In this document: positions 12,459 to 20,381 of the stretch, in pieces
Layout: each line of letters opens with the position of its first letter
Numbering within the stretch: position 1 is the first letter of the stretch
Assembly: GCF_045037415.1 (NCBI RefSeq)
Contig: NZ_CP173438.1
Source: Escherichia coli
Lineage (GTDB): Bacteria > Pseudomonadota > Gammaproteobacteria > Enterobacterales > Enterobacteriaceae
Direction: 5' to 3' (one strand)
DNA: 64,000 nucleotides
The notes under the pieces: generated by a model
Told to the model about the DNA's origin: nothing
What the model saw: the letters and a program-made list of their open reading frames with translations, nothing else
The model's database searches: none
Position numbers and translations under genes: made by a program

Positions 12459-12575
12459 TTTAAGCACACATTGTCAATATTATTTGTTCCTGCGCCTGGA
12501 AATAAAATGATGATAAAGATGCGGCAAGTGAATTTGCCGCAATTGCTACCTTTTTTAGCAAATCCGAGGCACCCA

Positions 12576-13934
12576 ATGGAACAATATGATCAAATTGGCG
12601 CAAGACTGGACCGCTTGCCTTTGGCCCGGTTTCATTATCGTATATTTGGTATAATAAGCTTTAGTCTGTTATTAACGGGGTTTTTGAGTTACTCCGGTAA
12701 TGTCGTCTTAGCAAAGCTGGTAAGCAATGGATGGTCAAATAATTTCCTCAATGCCGCCTTTACCTCGGCATTAATGTTTGGTTATTTCATCGGCTCTCTT
12801 ACCGGTGGGTTTATTGGTGACTACTTTGGGCGGCGCAGGGCGTTTCGCATAAATCTTCTCATCGTCGGTATTGCGGCAACAGGGGCCGCTTTTGTCCCTG
12901 ATATGTACTGGCTCATCTTCTTTCGCTTCCTGATGGGAACAGGAATGGGGGCGCTGATTATGGTTGGCTATGCCTCATTTACGGAGTTTATCCCCGCGAC
13001 GGTGCGTGGAAAATGGTCCGCGCGGCTCTCATTTGTTGGAAACTGGTCGCCCATGCTGTCTGCGGCGATAGGCGTGGTGGTTATCGCTTTTTTTAGTTGG
13101 CGGATAATGTTTCTGCTGGGCGGTATTGGCATACTGTTAGCCTGGTTTCTCTCAGGTAAATACTTTATTGAGTCGCCACGATGGTTGGCAGGGAAAGGGC
13201 GAATCGCAGGTGCAGAAAGCCAACTTCGTGAAGTAGAGCAGCAAATTGAAAGAGAGAAGAGTATTCGTTTACCCCCGCTTACTTTGAACCAGAGCAACAG
13301 CAAGGTTAAGGTAATCAAGGGTACCTTCTGGCTCCTGTTTAAAGGGGAAATGTTACGACGTACATTAGTCGCGATTACTGTTTTAATTGCAATGAACATT
13401 TCGCTTTATACCATCACCGTATGGATGCCGACCATATTTGTTAACTCCGGCATTGATGTCGATAAATCAATATTAATGACCGCTGTTATTATGATTGGCG
13501 CTCCGGTAGGGATATTTATTGCGGCATTAATTATTGATCATTTCCCTCGTCGATTATTTGGTTCCGCCTTACTTATTATTATTGCCGTGTTAGGCTATAT
13601 CTATTCAATTCAGACAACAGAGTGGGCGATTTTAATCTATGGCCTGGTGATGATCTTCTTTTTATACATGTATGTTTGCTTCGCGTCGGCGGTTTATATC
13701 CCGGAACTTTGGCCAACGCATTTACGCCTGCGTGGTTCGGGTTTCGTTAATGCCGTAGGACGGATCGTCGCAGTCTTCACGCCCTATGGCGTTGCGGCAT
13801 TATTAACACATTATGGGTCGATCACGGTGTTTATGGTGCTTGGTGTCATGTTAGTGCTCTGTGCGCTGGTTCTCTCCATTTTTGGCATCGAAACGCGGAA
13901 GGTGTCGCTGGAAGAGATTTCTGAGGTGAATTAA
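12576..13934 (+). CDS. ydjE: MFS transporter YdjE
   Basis: 452 aa from MEQYDQIG; paralogous to ydjK; track ORF start 12471 is an extension. Confidence 0.8.
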   Translation: MEQYDQIGARLDRLPLARFHYRIFGIISFSLLLTGFLSYSGNVVLAKLVSNGWSNNFLNAAFTSALMFGYFIGSLTGGFIGDYFGRRRAFRINLLIVGIAATGAAFVPDMYWLIFFRFLMGTGMGALIMVGYASFTEFIPATVRGKWSARLSFVGNWSPMLSAAIGVVVIAFFSWRIMFLLGGIGILLAWFLSGKYFIESPRWLAGKGRIAGAESQLREVEQQIEREKSIRLPPLTLNQSNSKVKVIKGTFWLLFKGEMLRRTLVAITVLIAMNISLYTITVWMPTIFVNSGIDVDKSILMTAVIMIGAPVGIFIAALIIDHFPRRLFGSALLIIIAVLGYIYSIQTTEWAILIYGLVMIFFLYMYVCFASAVYIPELWPTHLRLRGSGFVNAVGRIVAVFTPYGVAALLTHYGSITVFMVLGVMLVLCALVLSIFGIETRKVSLEEISEVN

Positions 13935-14678: not shown

Positions 14679-15695
14679 TTAATCATCCGGCGTCAGTTCG
14701 CCACGCAGGTTTTGGCTCATGGCCTTGCGAATGGTTTCAGTATCAAGTTTCTGGCTAAGCAGGTAATGCAGTTTGGTTAGCGTGGCTTCTACAGTCATAT
14801 CTGCACCGCCAATAACGCCGGCATGGGCGAGGGCGTTACCGGTGGCATAACCACCCATGTTCACTTTACCGGACATACATTGTGTCAGGTTGACCACCAC
14901 AATACCGCGATCGCTGGCTTCTTGTAATTCCTGCAGGAAGGCTTTGTTTTGTGGCGCATTACCCACGCCATATGAGCGCAGAATCAATGCTTTCACAGGT
15001 TGGCGCAGAAAATTGCGCACGACGTCAGCAGAAATCCCCGGATAAATCGTCACTACGCCAATTGGTTGCGGCGTGATTGGATGAACGATCAATTCCCCTT
15101 CGCCGTGCGGGGCGGGTGGCGTATTCAAACGACGAATATGGATACCTGCTTCCAGTAACGGAGGAAGGTTTGGAGAGGCAAACGCATCAAAACCATCGGC
15201 ATGGGCTTTGGTGGTTCGGTTGCCACGATACAGTCGATTATTAAAAAAGAGAGTTACTTCGTTGATAGGATAATTCGCCGCAACGTACAACGCATTCAGC
15301 AGATTAATTTGTCCGTCAGAGCGTAACTCAGCCAGCGGGATTTGTGACCCTGTCACAATGACCGGTTTACTGAGATTCTCGAGCATGAACGACAGTGCAG
15401 AGGCGGTATACGCCATCGTGTCTGTGCCGTGCAGAATGACAAAACCATCATAGTCGTCATAGTGCGCTTTAATATCTTCAGCAATATGCTGCCAGTCTTC
15501 TGGCGTCATATCAGAAGAATCCATCAATGGCGTATATTCATGAATGGTGAAATCTGGCATCTCCGGGCGATGGAATTCCGGCATCAGCGCCAGTTGGCGC
15601 TGTAGATGACCTGACACCGGAATATAACCCTGCTCGGAACGCTGCATCCCGATGGTCCCGCCCGTGTAGGCGACGTAAATTGATTTCTTTTGCAT
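14679..15695 (-). CDS. ansA: cytoplasmic L-asparaginase I
   Basis: 338 aa MQKKSIYVAYTGGTIGM...; asparaginase TGGTIG motif. Confidence 0.93.
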   Translation of the reverse strand: MQKKSIYVAYTGGTIGMQRSEQGYIPVSGHLQRQLALMPEFHRPEMPDFTIHEYTPLMDSSDMTPEDWQHIAEDIKAHYDDYDGFVILHGTDTMAYTASALSFMLENLSKPVIVTGSQIPLAELRSDGQINLLNALYVAANYPINEVTLFFNNRLYRGNRTTKAHADGFDAFASPNLPPLLEAGIHIRRLNTPPAPHGEGELIVHPITPQPIGVVTIYPGISADVVRNFLRQPVKALILRSYGVGNAPQNKAFLQELQEASDRGIVVVNLTQCMSGKVNMGGYATGNALAHAGVIGGADMTVEATLTKLHYLLSQKLDTETIRKAMSQNLRGELTPDD

Positions 15696-15782
15696 GATAT
15701 TGATATGAATGATATCGAAAGAGCAAAAGTATATACGTGAGGGGCAGCGAGCGCACCTGGATACTCTGTGGATATGAGAAAA

Positions 15783-15816
15783 GTCCGGCAGAACGGAGGG
15801 ATTAGTGTCCCGCCGG
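15783..15816 (-). terminator. hairpin plus U-tract downstream of the extra SIMPL-like ORF
   Basis: minus-strand TCCGGCGGGA...TCCC...GCCGGA stem-loop followed by CUUUUCUC. Confidence 0.4.
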
Positions 15817-15826
15817 AGAAAAGTGG

Positions 15827-16549
15827 TTAATCCTGCAACGCATAGGTTACGGTGGTGACTACGCGTACCGTTTTATTAATCGCCGTAGGATCATCTTCAT
15901 CACTGCCACTGGCGAAGATCTGGAACACGCCTTGTGAGGCATCGCTAATTGACCCCACCTGGCTACCTGAGTCCGTTGCAAATTGTAATGCTGCGTTGCG
16001 TGCATCTTTGGTGGCGGCGGCAATCATCTCAGCGCGCAGTGCGCCAATACCATTAAAGCGATAGGCGACTTTGCTCTCAGCGATAGCGCCCTCCGTAGCG
16101 ACTTGCAGTTCGTTTAATTTCGCGACGACTTTTTCGACAGCAGCAACATTATGGGTTTTTATCGTCACTGACCCGTCTGCGTTATAGCGTGGCATTGTGG
16201 GATCATCTTTCAGATAAAAGGAATCTGTTCGCTTGCTTGTCCATTGGCCCAGGGTTATCTCTTTCTCGTTAATCCCCTGAGCATTGAGTTCGGCAACAAT
16301 TTTTTTCTGCGCGTCTTCCAGTTTCGGGAACAGTTCGCCGGGAATATTACCCTTAAAGTTAATCGCAATTGTTAATTCTGCCGTATCTGCGCGAACTTCT
16401 TTTTCAGAAAGCCCACGCACATTTACATAACGGTTATTGGTTTTTAAATGTTTAACACCATCGCCAACAAAATAACCACAGGCGCTAATCCCCAGTCCGA
16501 GGACGATAGCGGCAATTAAAGAGGGGGCCTTATTCACTGATGACTCCAT
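15827..16549 (-). CDS. putative lipoprotein, SIMPL/DUF541-like (YggE/BP26-like); not expected at this locus from K-12
   Basis: uninterrupted ORF (track 15827..16639; probable start MESSVNK at 16549); signal peptide with lipobox-like ISAC; C-terminal A-rich ...GSQVGSISDASQG... pattern reminiscent of SIMPL family. Confidence 0.6.
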   Translation of the reverse strand: MESSVNKAPSLIAAIVLGLGISACGYFVGDGVKHLKTNNRYVNVRGLSEKEVRADTAELTIAINFKGNIPGELFPKLEDAQKKIVAELNAQGINEKEITLGQWTSKRTDSFYLKDDPTMPRYNADGSVTIKTHNVAAVEKVVAKLNELQVATEGAIAESKVAYRFNGIGALRAEMIAAATKDARNAALQFATDSGSQVGSISDASQGVFQIFASGSDEDDPTAINKTVRVVTTVTYALQD

Positions 16550-16616
16550 ATCAGATGCTAAATGAGCAAGGGAATGTAGTGGAGAGAGGGAGTGAAAGAC
16601 AGTCCGATTCAGGAGT

Positions 16617-16645
16617 GTGGCCGACAGCATATCGGCCACATTTTT
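16617..16645 (+). other. hairpin abutting sppA stop; its T-tract faces the plus strand
   Basis: GTGGCCGA-cagcata-TCGGCCAC followed by TTTTT on plus strand. Confidence 0.45.
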
Positions 16646-16652
16646 GCAGGAC

Positions 16653-18509
16653 TTAACGCACGTTGGCGCAGGTCAGGCAAAACGCATAACGGTTTTGTGG
16701 GTCGTTAAACGCGGCCAGCTTGTCGCTTTCACTTTTAACGGTAGAGGCTACCGAGGCCAGCGGTGCAGGTAACATGGCCTGGAACGCATCTGGCAACATT
16801 GCCCGGACAGAACCAGACATGTTGTCCATCACTTTGTCGAAGAAGGTCGGTTCATCAACGTAGTATTCCAGATGCCACTGTTTCACTTTTGCCAGCTCTG
16901 CTGCTTTGGCGACCGCATCATCGAAATCCCCGAGACTATCGACCAGCCCGTTAGCTTTTGCATCCTGACCGGTCCAGACGTGGCCCTGGGCGATTTTATC
17001 AATCTGCTCCGGCGTTGAATGACGCGCATCAGCAACCAGCGTGATAAAGCGTTTATAGCCATTCTCAATGCTTAACTGCATCATCTGCTGCACTTCCGGC
17101 GGCAGTGCCCTGGTGATAGAAACATCCGCCAGCGGTGAAGTTGAGACACCATCAGTATGAACACCAATCGAATCCAGACTATTTTCTACGGTGGTGATCA
17201 CGCCGAAGATACCGATAGAACCGGTCAGGGTGCTGGGGTTAGCCACAATGTAATTAGCTGGTGTGGAAATCCAGTAACCACCAGATGCCGCCATGCCACC
17301 CATCGATACAACCACAGGCTTACCCGCTGCCCGGGCTGCTGCCAGTTCAGCGCGAATCACTTCAGACGCGGTAACGCTGCCGCCGGGACTATTAACACGC
17401 AGAACAATCGCTTTCACTTTCGGGTCAAGGCGAGCGTCGCGGATTTGTGCCGCAGTGGTATCACCGCCAACATTCCCCTGAGTTTCCTCGCCATCCATAA
17501 TTGCGCCATTAGCGAAGACGACACCGATACTGTCACCGGTATCTGCCGGCGTTTTCAATGCGTAATCGTAATAACTGATGGCGCGATAATTTTTATCAGT
17601 TTTACTCCAGCCGAACTCTTTGGTCAGAGTTTTTTCGATTTCGGCACTCGATGCCAGTGCATCGACCAGCTTGTTTTCCAGCGCATATTTCGCGGTATCG
17701 CCACCGGTTTTGGTTAAACCCTCAAGCAACCCTTGCGCGCCAGGGAATACCTGCTGAGCAGGGATCTGGCGGTTAGCGGCAACAGTATTCAGATAGTTTT
17801 GCCACAGCTCACCAATCCAGCGGCTGTCAGCTTCGCGGGCTGCCGGCGACATATCATCACGAATAAACGGTTCAACGGCAGATTTATACGTACCCACGCG
17901 GAACACATGGGTGGAAACTTTCAGCTTATCCAGTAACGATTTGTAGTACAGACCGTTGGTGGCAAAGCCGTGCAGATCAACCACGCCTTGCGGAGACAGC
18001 CAAATTTTATTGGCGAAACTGGCGAGATAATATTGCCCCTGGCTGTAGTTCTCGCCAACGGCATAAACCGGTTTCCCGCTGTCACGAAACTCTTTCAGAG
18101 CTTTGCCGATGTACTGCATAGACGGCTGGTCGCCGCCTGCGAAGTTTTTCAGATCCATCACAATACCGGTGATATTGCGGTCGTCCTTCGCCTGGCGAAT
18201 GGTGTTGACGATATCAAACAGTGAGTTTTCCTGAAGACGATCGGAACTGGCACCAAGCAGCTGGCGGCTTAATTTACTAAACCGCTGAGAACTGTCGGGT
18301 TTATCGACGATCACACCAGAAATGTCCAGCAGCAGTGCGCCACGACTGGCCGTTTCTTTCGAATCACCACCACTGACCTGCATCCAGATCCCCACACCAA
18401 CCAGCACGAGAAAAATAAAGAACAGGTTAAGTACCATTTCACGGACGAAATTCAGCAGACGCCACGTCCATTTAAAAAATCCGGCAATAAATCGCCAAAG
18501 GGTTCGCAT
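16653..18509 (-). CDS. sppA: signal peptide peptidase A (protease IV)
   Basis: 618 aa [21 protein letters not shown]...; tandem ClpP-like S49 domains. Confidence 0.93.
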
Positions 18510-18669
18510 GTATTCTCCCAACTTAAGGTCACACCTGTTTCAGGCGCAATAGATGTGGTTATCGTAATGACCCAACCGGCACTTGTCAGCAGGAATTGCG
18601 GACTGGGCTGTAACAAAATCCACTCTCGTGTTAATTTTGTGAATAAATATCATGACAGGAGTTAATCAA

Positions 18670-19221
18670 ATGGATGCACTCGAACTATTGATCAATCGCC
18701 GTAGCGCCTCCCGCCTGGCTGAACCCGCGCCAACGGGTGAACAACTGCAAAACATCCTGCGTGCGGGTATGCGTGCGCCGGACCATAAGTCCATGCAACC
18801 GTGGCATTTCTTTGTGATTGAAGGGGAAGGGCGCGAGCGTTTCAGCGCCGTACTGGAGCAGGGGGCGATTGCTGCCGGTAGTGATAACAAAGCAATCGAC
18901 AAAGCGCGTAATGCGCCGTTCCGCGCACCGCTCATCATAACGGTGGTGGCGAAATGTGAAGAAAATCATAAAGTCCCGCGCTGGGAACAGGAAATGTCTG
19001 CGGGATGCGCGGTCATGGCGATGCAAATGGCAGCAGTTGCCCAGGGGTTTGGCGGCATCTGGCGCAGTGGTGCATTAACTGAAAGTCCGGTAGTGCGTGA
19101 AGCATTCGGTTGCCGTGAGCAGGATAAAATTGTCGGTTTTCTCTACCTCGGTACGCCGCAGTTGAAAGCATCTACGTCGATAAACGTCCCGGACCCGACG
19201 CCGTTTGTGACTTATTTCTGA
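18670..19221 (+). CDS. ydjA: nitroreductase-family protein YdjA
   Basis: 183 aa [16 protein letters not shown]...; small nitroreductase fold. Confidence 0.88.
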
Positions 19222-19337
19222 TAATTGTCGCGAAACTGTCTGGATTGTGAGCAAAGGCGCAGGAATTCAGACACTCTCACTTATCACTTCATGGAATGAG
19301 GGTTACCATACCCGGATTGCATTGACAGGAGATGTCC

Positions 19338-20381
19338 ATGAGCGAGAACTCGATTCGTTTGACCCAATACAGCCACGGCGCTGGTTGCGGCTGTAAAATT
19401 TCCCCAAAAGTGTTGGAAACCATCCTGCACAGTGAGCAGGCGAAGTTTGTTGATCCGAATTTGCTTGTGGGTAATGAAACCCGCGACGATGCGGCGGTGT
19501 ACGATCTGGGCAATGGCACCAGCGTTATCAGTACCACCGACTTCTTTATGCCGATCGTTGATAATCCTTTCGATTTTGGCCGCATTGCGGCGACTAACGC
19601 CATCAGCGATATCTTTGCTATGGGCGGCAAACCGATTATGGCGATTGCGATCCTCGGCTGGCCGATTAACAAACTTTCCCCGGAAATTGCCCGCGAAGTG
19701 ACCGAAGGTGGACGCTATGCATGCCGTCAGGCGGGTATTGCGCTGGCTGGCGGTCACTCCATCGATGCGCCGGAGCCGATTTTTGGTCTGGCGGTAACGG
19801 GGATCGTACCGACCGAGCGGGTGAAGAAAAACAGTACCGCACAAGCCGGATGCAAACTGTTCCTGACGAAACCGCTGGGGATTGGCGTTCTTACCACGGC
19901 TGAGAAAAAATCACTGCTGAAACCAGAACATCAGGGACTGGCGACGGAAGTGATGTGCCGGATGAACATCGCAGGCGTGTCCTTTGCCAACATCGAAGGC
20001 GTAAAAGCGATGACCGACGTTACGGGTTTTGGTTTACTGGGGCATTTAAGCGAAATGTGTCAGGGCGCAGGTGTGCAGGCGCGCGTCGACTATGACGCGA
20101 TCCCGAAATTGCCGGGGGTTGAAGAGTACATTAAGTTGGGCGCAGTGCCTGGCGGCACCGAACGTAACTTTGCCAGCTACGGTCATCTGATGGGTGAAAT
20201 GCCGCGTGAAGTGCGCGATCTGCTGTGCGATCCGCAAACTTCTGGCGGTTTGCTGCTGGCGGTCATGCCGGAAGCAGAAAATGAGGTCAAAGCTACAGCC
20301 GCCGAGTTTGGCATTGAACTGACGGCGATTGGCGAACTGGTGCCAGCGCGCGGCGGTCGTGCCATGGTTGAGATCCGTTAA
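19338..20381 (+). CDS. selD: selenide, water dikinase (selenophosphate synthetase)
   Basis: 347 aa [23 protein letters not shown]...; AIR-synthase-like fold. Confidence 0.93.

Follow-up and report, generated by a model that had tools for sequence, protein, structure and literature searches.

Introduction

In the stretch of Escherichia coli DNA analyzed here (64,000 nt, referred to below as the window), the genes sppA and ansA are separated by an interval of 957 nt (15696..16652, minus strand) that contains one long open reading frame (ORF) on the same strand. This raises the question whether the ORF is strain-specific or newly acquired content that was inserted between the two genes, as the original prediction had proposed from the letters of the sequence, or an old component of the chromosome that other strains have lost. 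The ORF is present as predicted, and the gene turned out to be already known: it is an annotated, ancestral accessory gene of the genus. Taken as a whole, the locus is best explained, and in our judgment quite likely to be explained correctly, as an ordinary gene of the chromosome that is inherited vertically and encodes a cell-envelope protein of the SIMPL/DUF541 family.

RefSeq lists the protein under WP_001030438.1 (MULTISPECIES Escherichia) as 'SIMPL domain-containing protein', and UniRef has it as 'DUF541 domain-containing protein'; these entries and the gene in the window represent the same gene, without any difference between them. Under the name 'MULTISPECIES: SIMPL domain-containing protein [Escherichia]', precisely this protein is listed for at least 1,000 contigs, and its 90% cluster includes members from E. 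marmotae and Shigella flexneri. The allele of O157:H7 (WP_001030441.1) shows a nucleotide identity of 97.8% to the gene in the window.

Gene features

On the minus strand, the interval is bordered by the stop codon of sppA (TAA, 16655-16653) and the start codon of ansA (ATG, 15695). The coordinates of the features within it are summarized in Table 1. The neighboring genes are arranged in the same order as in K-12: a gene for a YdjE-like MFS transporter (12471-13934, plus strand), then pncA, ansA, the SIMPL gene and sppA (all on the minus strand), followed by ydjA (nitroreductase) and selD (18652-20381, plus strand).

The product had been expected to comprise 240 aa, or 270 aa if a start farther upstream is used. 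The position of the ATG at 16549, with which the 240-aa translation begins, reads AAG in Escherichia sp. E1V33 and in E. albertii, and the Shine-Dalgarno sequence ahead of the GTG at 16537 is conserved as AAGGAG or AAGGAA in the alignment of E1V33, E. albertii and E. fergusonii. The annotation pipeline PGAP arrives at the same 236-aa protein, WP_001030438.1, in a locus whose sequence matches the window at 100% identity over 1,201 nt. (Note that the tblastn identity to this locus is 99.6% only because the GTG start of the query was changed to M.) As judged from the alignment, GTG 16537 is the conserved start, the product has 236 aa, and these boundaries are the best for the gene. The 270-aa translation, whose GTG lies within the hairpin next to sppA, was rejected as a mechanical ORF without support.

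A comparison with Rfam yielded no match within the sppA-ansA interval. The sole match above the gathering score in the 64-kb window was the small RNA ES036 (CssrF) at 42724-42766 on the minus strand (42.9 bits, E = 2.5e-05).

Table 1. Positions of the features in and around the sppA-ansA interval of the window
Feature	Position	Strand	Description	Basis
sppA-ansA interval (whole)	15696..16652	-	957 nt here, 166 nt in K-12, CFT073 and O111:H11	
SIMPL (DUF541) CDS	15827..16537	-	236 aa; GTG start, TAA at 15829-15827	ORF list, translation, PGAP, Pfam, dN/dS
Shine-Dalgarno sequence GGAG	16544..16547	-	6-nt spacer to the GTG start	read from the sequence
N-terminal hydrophobic segment APSLIAAIVLGLGISACGYFV	16463..16525	-	codons 5-25; contains lipobox-like ISAC with Cys20	Kyte-Doolittle, AlphaFold2
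Hairpin just 3' of the sppA stop	16617..16640	-	homologous to the K-12 sppA terminator hairpin	fold; comparison with K-12, E. albertii and E. fergusonii
Terminator-like hairpin 3' of the SIMPL stop	15776..15817	-	11-bp stem and 12-nt loop (15784-15817), then CUUUUCUC tail (15776-15783)	

Family assignment and predicted structure

Membership in the SIMPL/DUF541 family, which had been predicted from the pattern of the C-terminal region, was confirmed by a match to the full Pfam model PF04402 (E = 3.2e-18, 67.2 bits, model positions 1-205 of 205, residues 42-236 of the 240-aa translation). Among solved structures, the nearest are PDB entry 10am_A, a full-length 'Periplasmic protein' with nine chains in the entry (E = 1e-27 by sequence, 5.8e-62 by a profile built from 27 homologs), and 7C50/7C51, the Simpl-like protein of Campylobacter jejuni (E = 4e-26 by sequence, 1.2e-59 by profile), whereas BP26 of Brucella (4HVZ) is far more distant by sequence (profile E = 5e-07). 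The AlphaFold2 model of the monomer (mean pLDDT 83.5) gave the same ranking when compared with the PDB using Foldseek: the best match was 7c50 (E = 4.7e-18, TM 0.77, 31% identity) and the second was BP26, 4hvz (E = 3.4e-13), the remaining matches being at noise level (E >= 3e-05, TM about 0.25). The model thus has the predicted two-lobed alpha/beta fold of the SIMPL family.

The proteins from C. jejuni (7C50/7C51) and the near-identical 10am belong to the same subfamily as the Escherichia protein; they have about 230 aa and carry an N-terminal hydrophobic helix followed by the SIMPL domain, but they share only about 30% identity with it and come from another organism and another genomic context. 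BP26 (Omp28) has the SIMPL fold in common with the Escherichia protein and is likewise a periplasmic or envelope protein, yet the identity is 16%, and a membrane anchor is predicted for the Escherichia protein, while in BP26 the signal peptide is cleaved off and 16 subunits assemble into a soluble, channel-like structure.

A resemblance to YggE of E. coli had also been suggested; it holds only at the level of the family. Both are envelope proteins of E. coli from the same Pfam family, encoded at different loci, and the NCBIfam equivalog model for YggE (NF008299) gives a weak match (E = 5e-4). Its score of 19.5 bits lies far below the curated cutoff of 249, and the protein is therefore a member of the SIMPL family but not an ortholog of YggE. 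It could still be imagined as a functional duplicate of YggE, an oxidative-stress defense protein, and as redundant given yggE elsewhere on the chromosome. The shared family and the weak equivalog match agree with such a view. The same low score, the much closer relationship to the C. jejuni subfamily, and the predicted transmembrane anchor, in place of the cleaved signal peptide of YggE, make it improbable. The two genes also differ in occurrence, yggE being a gene of the core genome, whereas the SIMPL gene between sppA and ansA is found in 17% of the complete genomes.

Models for anti-phage defense (PADLOC) matched the SIMPL protein with 0 families, and the phage protein models of PHROGs gave merely one match of 15.5 bits (E = 0.033); a role as an anti-phage defense or phage protein was rejected on these results.

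N-terminal segment and predicted localization

The N-terminus of the protein carries a signal or anchor for export to the cell envelope, the localization itself being predicted. It starts with a lysine at position 3, behind which lies a hydrophobic stretch some 21 residues long. The original prediction had described this part as a signal peptide ending in a lipobox-like ISAC and the product as a lipoprotein, a description that stands as far as the motif in E. coli is concerned but fits the family poorly.

Under a rule in the style of PROSITE PS51257 ([LVI][ASTVI][GAS]C preceded by a positively charged n-region and a hydrophobic h-region), the N-terminus MNKAPSLIAAIVLGLGISA/CGYFVGDG of E. coli qualifies as a lipobox (the slash marks the putative cleavage site), and so do those of E. 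albertii and of the enterobacterial contig L087, all three having MNK, a hydrophobic stretch and LGISA/C. In a true lipoprotein, signal peptidase II would cut before Cys20, and the Gly at position +2 would direct the protein to the outer membrane via Lol sorting. Against this, only seven of the 111 homologs whose N-termini could be placed in register have a Cys at the lipobox position, all seven from Escherichia or from L087, its close enterobacterial relative; the others carry Ala, Met, Gly, Ser or Leu. Among the syntenic orthologs, the residue is Gly in P0009 (contig L095) and Ala in P0010 (contig L090), and E. fergusonii reads ITVC, in which the Val at position -1 is disallowed, so that the rule fails there. 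The 19-residue window of highest Kyte-Doolittle hydropathy (2.12) spans residues 7-25 and has Cys20 inside it. The AlphaFold2 model shows one continuous helix over residues 4-29, prolonged by the nearly invariant motif G-[YF]-F-[IV]-G-x-G (conserved GYFIGDG). Finally, the first residue of the full-length 10am structure to be aligned is chain residue 8, inside the corresponding hydrophobic N-terminal segment. Processing to a lipoprotein is, on balance, possible but doubtful.

The rarity of the Cys, the hydrophobic maximum across it and the helix of residues 4-29 together argue for a family architecture of an N-terminal signal anchor followed by a periplasmic SIMPL domain. The hydrophobic segment is predicted most likely to be a transmembrane signal anchor, and the lipobox is probably a by-product of it. 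It may nevertheless be that in Escherichia an ancestral, membrane-anchored SIMPL protein was turned into a lipoprotein by the gain of Cys20.

Distribution and genomic context

The gene was found in 943 of 5,426 complete E. coli genomes (17%); each of these genomes has a single copy, which is always chromosomal, and the remaining 4,483 (83%) lack the gene. In every carrier locus that was inspected it lies between sppA and ansA. The copy is at least 99% identical to that of the window in 585 genomes, including the ST131 strains MNCRE44 and 'O25b:H4-ST131', and 95-99% identical in 358 genomes, including O157:H7, O55:H7 and O145 (97.8%). Positions 15600-16800 of the window are 100% identical to ST131 genomes, and the source strain is therefore probably ST131 or a near relative within B2. 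The gene is absent from K-12-like strains, as stated in the original prediction, and also from CFT073 (phylogroup B2) and O111:H11 (phylogroup B1). It thus marks ST131, O157:H7, O55:H7, O145 and some others apart from K-12, CFT073 and most E. coli.

Beyond E. coli, the arrangement ydjA-sppA-SIMPL-ansA-pncA is shared by E. albertii, E. fergusonii and Escherichia sp. E1V33 as well as by three further enterobacterial lineages (Table 2). In the protein search, all named matches above about 55% identity were from Escherichia; outside the syntenic enterobacterial loci, the nearest homologs among the matches listed came from environmental metagenomes (about 50-58% identity). The gene had been described as a single gene without partners, and the distant homologs agree with this: among 79 distant loci, a neighbor cluster was common to six at most, and those of the best-shared clusters that were examined came from closely related genomes. 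In the uncultured Enterobacteriaceae bacterium that has the same sppA-SIMPL-ansA-pncA order, a gene of 114 aa with an HNH domain follows pncA (L095, 6697-7041; L096, 3890-4234); this gene is absent from the Escherichia loci examined.

Table 2. Syntenic orthologs of the SIMPL gene and identity of the encoded proteins to those of the window
Source	SIMPL protein identity	SppA identity	Gene order
Escherichia sp. E1V33	93.6%		syntenic
E. albertii	86%	97%	syntenic
E. fergusonii	70%	87%	syntenic
Contig L087 (Logan)	68%	90%	syntenic
Uncultured Enterobacteriaceae, L095	67% (90% cluster representative P0009)		syntenic
Contigs L090/L091 (Logan)	66%	76-80%	syntenic

Ancestry and selection

Pairwise dN/dS values of the SIMPL gene against its orthologs lie between 0.05 and 0.13 in all comparisons. 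Together with the synteny across species, this indicates that the gene is ancestral and under purifying selection. At synonymous sites the SIMPL gene has diverged to a similar degree as its two neighbors, by 1.3-1.8 times their values: dS against E1V33 is 0.54 for the SIMPL gene, 0.39 for sppA and 0.41 for ansA, and dS against E. albertii is 1.19, 0.64 and 0.75, respectively.

These observations leave little room for the proposal that the gene is strain-specific content recently acquired between sppA and ansA. Its absence from K-12 and from most complete E. coli genomes had suggested such an origin, and a GC content at third codon positions slightly below that of the neighbors (0.46 vs 0.52-0.55) and the environmental source of the nearest non-syntenic homologs listed could be cited in its favor. 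However, the same locus is occupied in four or more other species or lineages of Escherichia and in the three further Enterobacteriaceae lineages of Table 2, the overall GC content is unremarkable (0.48 vs 0.50-0.52 in the flanks), and neither repeats nor tRNA, integrase, IS or other mobility genes were found at the borders of the interval. The alleles of phylogroups B2 and E differ by 2.2%, a divergence typical between phylogroups of E. coli, and K-12 has kept part of the gene's 3' flank in diverged form (see below). A recent acquisition is contradicted by the synteny and accordingly regarded as extremely improbable.

A different objection to the reading as an ordinary chromosomal gene is that it could be a decaying, functionless relic that is heading for loss everywhere. 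The SIMPL protein is the fastest-evolving one of the neighborhood, as the comparison with SppA in E. albertii and E. fergusonii illustrates (Table 2), the gene is missing from 83% of the complete E. coli genomes, and a broken copy and a shortened variant exist. Yet the low dN/dS in all comparisons and the intact ORF of 236-237 aa in every species examined are difficult to reconcile with decay, and in all 943 carriers in E. coli, no less than 80% of the gene is matched at a nucleotide identity of 95% or more, the one disrupted case inspected being due to IS1. We consider the relic very unlikely. The broken copy is found in NZ_OX030701.1 (448661-450638, corresponding to 15827-16537 of the window), an otherwise identical genome in which an IS1B-family insertion interrupts the gene and the annotation shows two SIMPL fragments and a transposase; the shortened variant (P0002, 220 aa, 93% identity) occurs on five contigs.

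The empty site

An alignment of the sppA-ansA interval shows which of its two states is derived. The K-12-like strains, CFT073 and O111:H11, representing phylogroups A, B2 and B1, share one architecture of the short spacer, with the same junction and point differences only. From sppA to ansA, this spacer is made up of the sppA hairpin with a T-tract behind it, together a canonical terminator, then of a stretch of 67 nt alignable with the 3' flank of the SIMPL gene in occupied alleles, and lastly of the upstream region of ansA, identical in all strains. Aligned with the window, E1V33 and E. albertii, the 67-nt remnant gives z values of 5.7, 7.2 and 5.1, respectively, relative to shuffled sequences, and none of 500 shuffles scored equally well. 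The common junction and the 3'-flank remnant point to a single deletion of about 791 bp, which took the gene and its 5' spacer. With the sppA-SIMPL-ansA order shared among the Escherichia species, the alignments identify K-12 as the derived, deleted state and not as a site that preceded an insertion; in the three empty-site strains examined, it goes back to one old deletion of about 790 bp. A 4-bp 'CCAC' microhomology at the deletion junction was considered and dropped, as it is indistinguishable from a breakpoint after the ancestral T-tract.

The coding DNA on either side, as compared among these strains, tracks strain phylogeny and not the presence of the gene. CFT073 does not differ from the window in the last 300 nt of sppA, nor does O157:H7 from K-12 in the first 300 nt of ansA, and O157:H7 has the same SppA accession as the gene-less O111:H11 and the same AnsA accession as O111:H11 and the K-12-like strain. 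The T-tract after the sppA hairpin is kept in the empty allele and in E. fergusonii, but every occupied allele of E. coli, E1V33 and E. albertii has lost it and has only an A-tract upstream. Moreover, the 3' remnant shares only about 60% identity with the occupied alleles, though the adjacent coding DNA is 97-100% identical. Given the E. fergusonii-like T-tract and the low identity of the remnant, the empty haplotype seems to predate the strains in which it is found, and recombination has probably moved it.

One may go further and regard presence and absence of the gene as an old, possibly trans-lineage pair of haplotypes that is kept by recombination, by balancing selection on the envelope protein, or by both. 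Put forward jointly with a conversion to a lipoprotein by the gain of Cys20, this is a speculative proposal to which we give a low probability.

Transcription signals

The gene had been predicted to be bracketed by hairpins, and both were found. The 61-nt stretch around the sppA hairpin (16600-16660) has a folding energy of -24.3 kcal/mol (z = -4.7), and the hairpin after the SIMPL stop one of -21 kcal/mol (z = -2.9); a diverged copy of the latter stretch persists in the K-12 spacer. On the strand of sppA and the SIMPL gene, the sppA hairpin of the window has an A-tract upstream (16641-16645) and no U-tract downstream, and read-through from sppA is therefore plausible. A consensus scan of positions 15500-17000 returned no sigma-70-like promoter, although the same scan also missed both hairpins as terminators owing to its loop and tail criteria. 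These signals are weakly suggestive of a co-transcription of the SIMPL gene with sppA in the allele of the window. In E. fergusonii, L087 and L090, canonical terminators are located between sppA and the SIMPL gene, from which we infer that a dedicated promoter must exist at least there.

Proposed function

In the preferred reading, the hydrophobic helix would stay uncleaved as a signal anchor and hold the SIMPL domain at the periplasmic face of the inner membrane; alternatively, the acquired Cys20 might allow processing as a lipoprotein in Escherichia. The SIMPL domain itself would serve, as in BP26, as a non-enzymatic, homo-oligomeric (ring-like) factor for envelope maintenance or stress protection. 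Such a mechanism, which probably applies, is carried over by analogy from BP26 and from the nine chains of entry 10am. In the allele of the window, which has no U-tract after the sppA hairpin and in which no sigma-70-like promoter was detected, the gene may be transcribed together with sppA. The loss of the gene in 83% of the genomes and the IS1 insertion in NZ_OX030701.1 suggest that it is dispensable under most conditions, which in turn may account for its frequent loss.

A literature search found no experimental work on the localization, oligomeric state, expression or phenotype of the protein, and none on the C. jejuni structures. It yielded passing mentions of SIMPL proteins that offer no mechanism, namely in a proteomics table for Bacteroides, as a synonymous SNP in Stenotrophomonas and in connection with the antimicrobial protein jileicin of Paenibacillus. 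The locus has little importance beyond annotation, for which the points of use are the deleted state of K-12, the start at GTG 16537 and the lipobox as a probable by-product of the anchor. The subfamily of membrane-anchored SIMPL proteins is widespread, with members in Bacteroidales, Acidobacteria, Alphaproteobacteria and Campylobacter, and a phenotype found in E. coli would transfer to many bacteria that possess such a protein.
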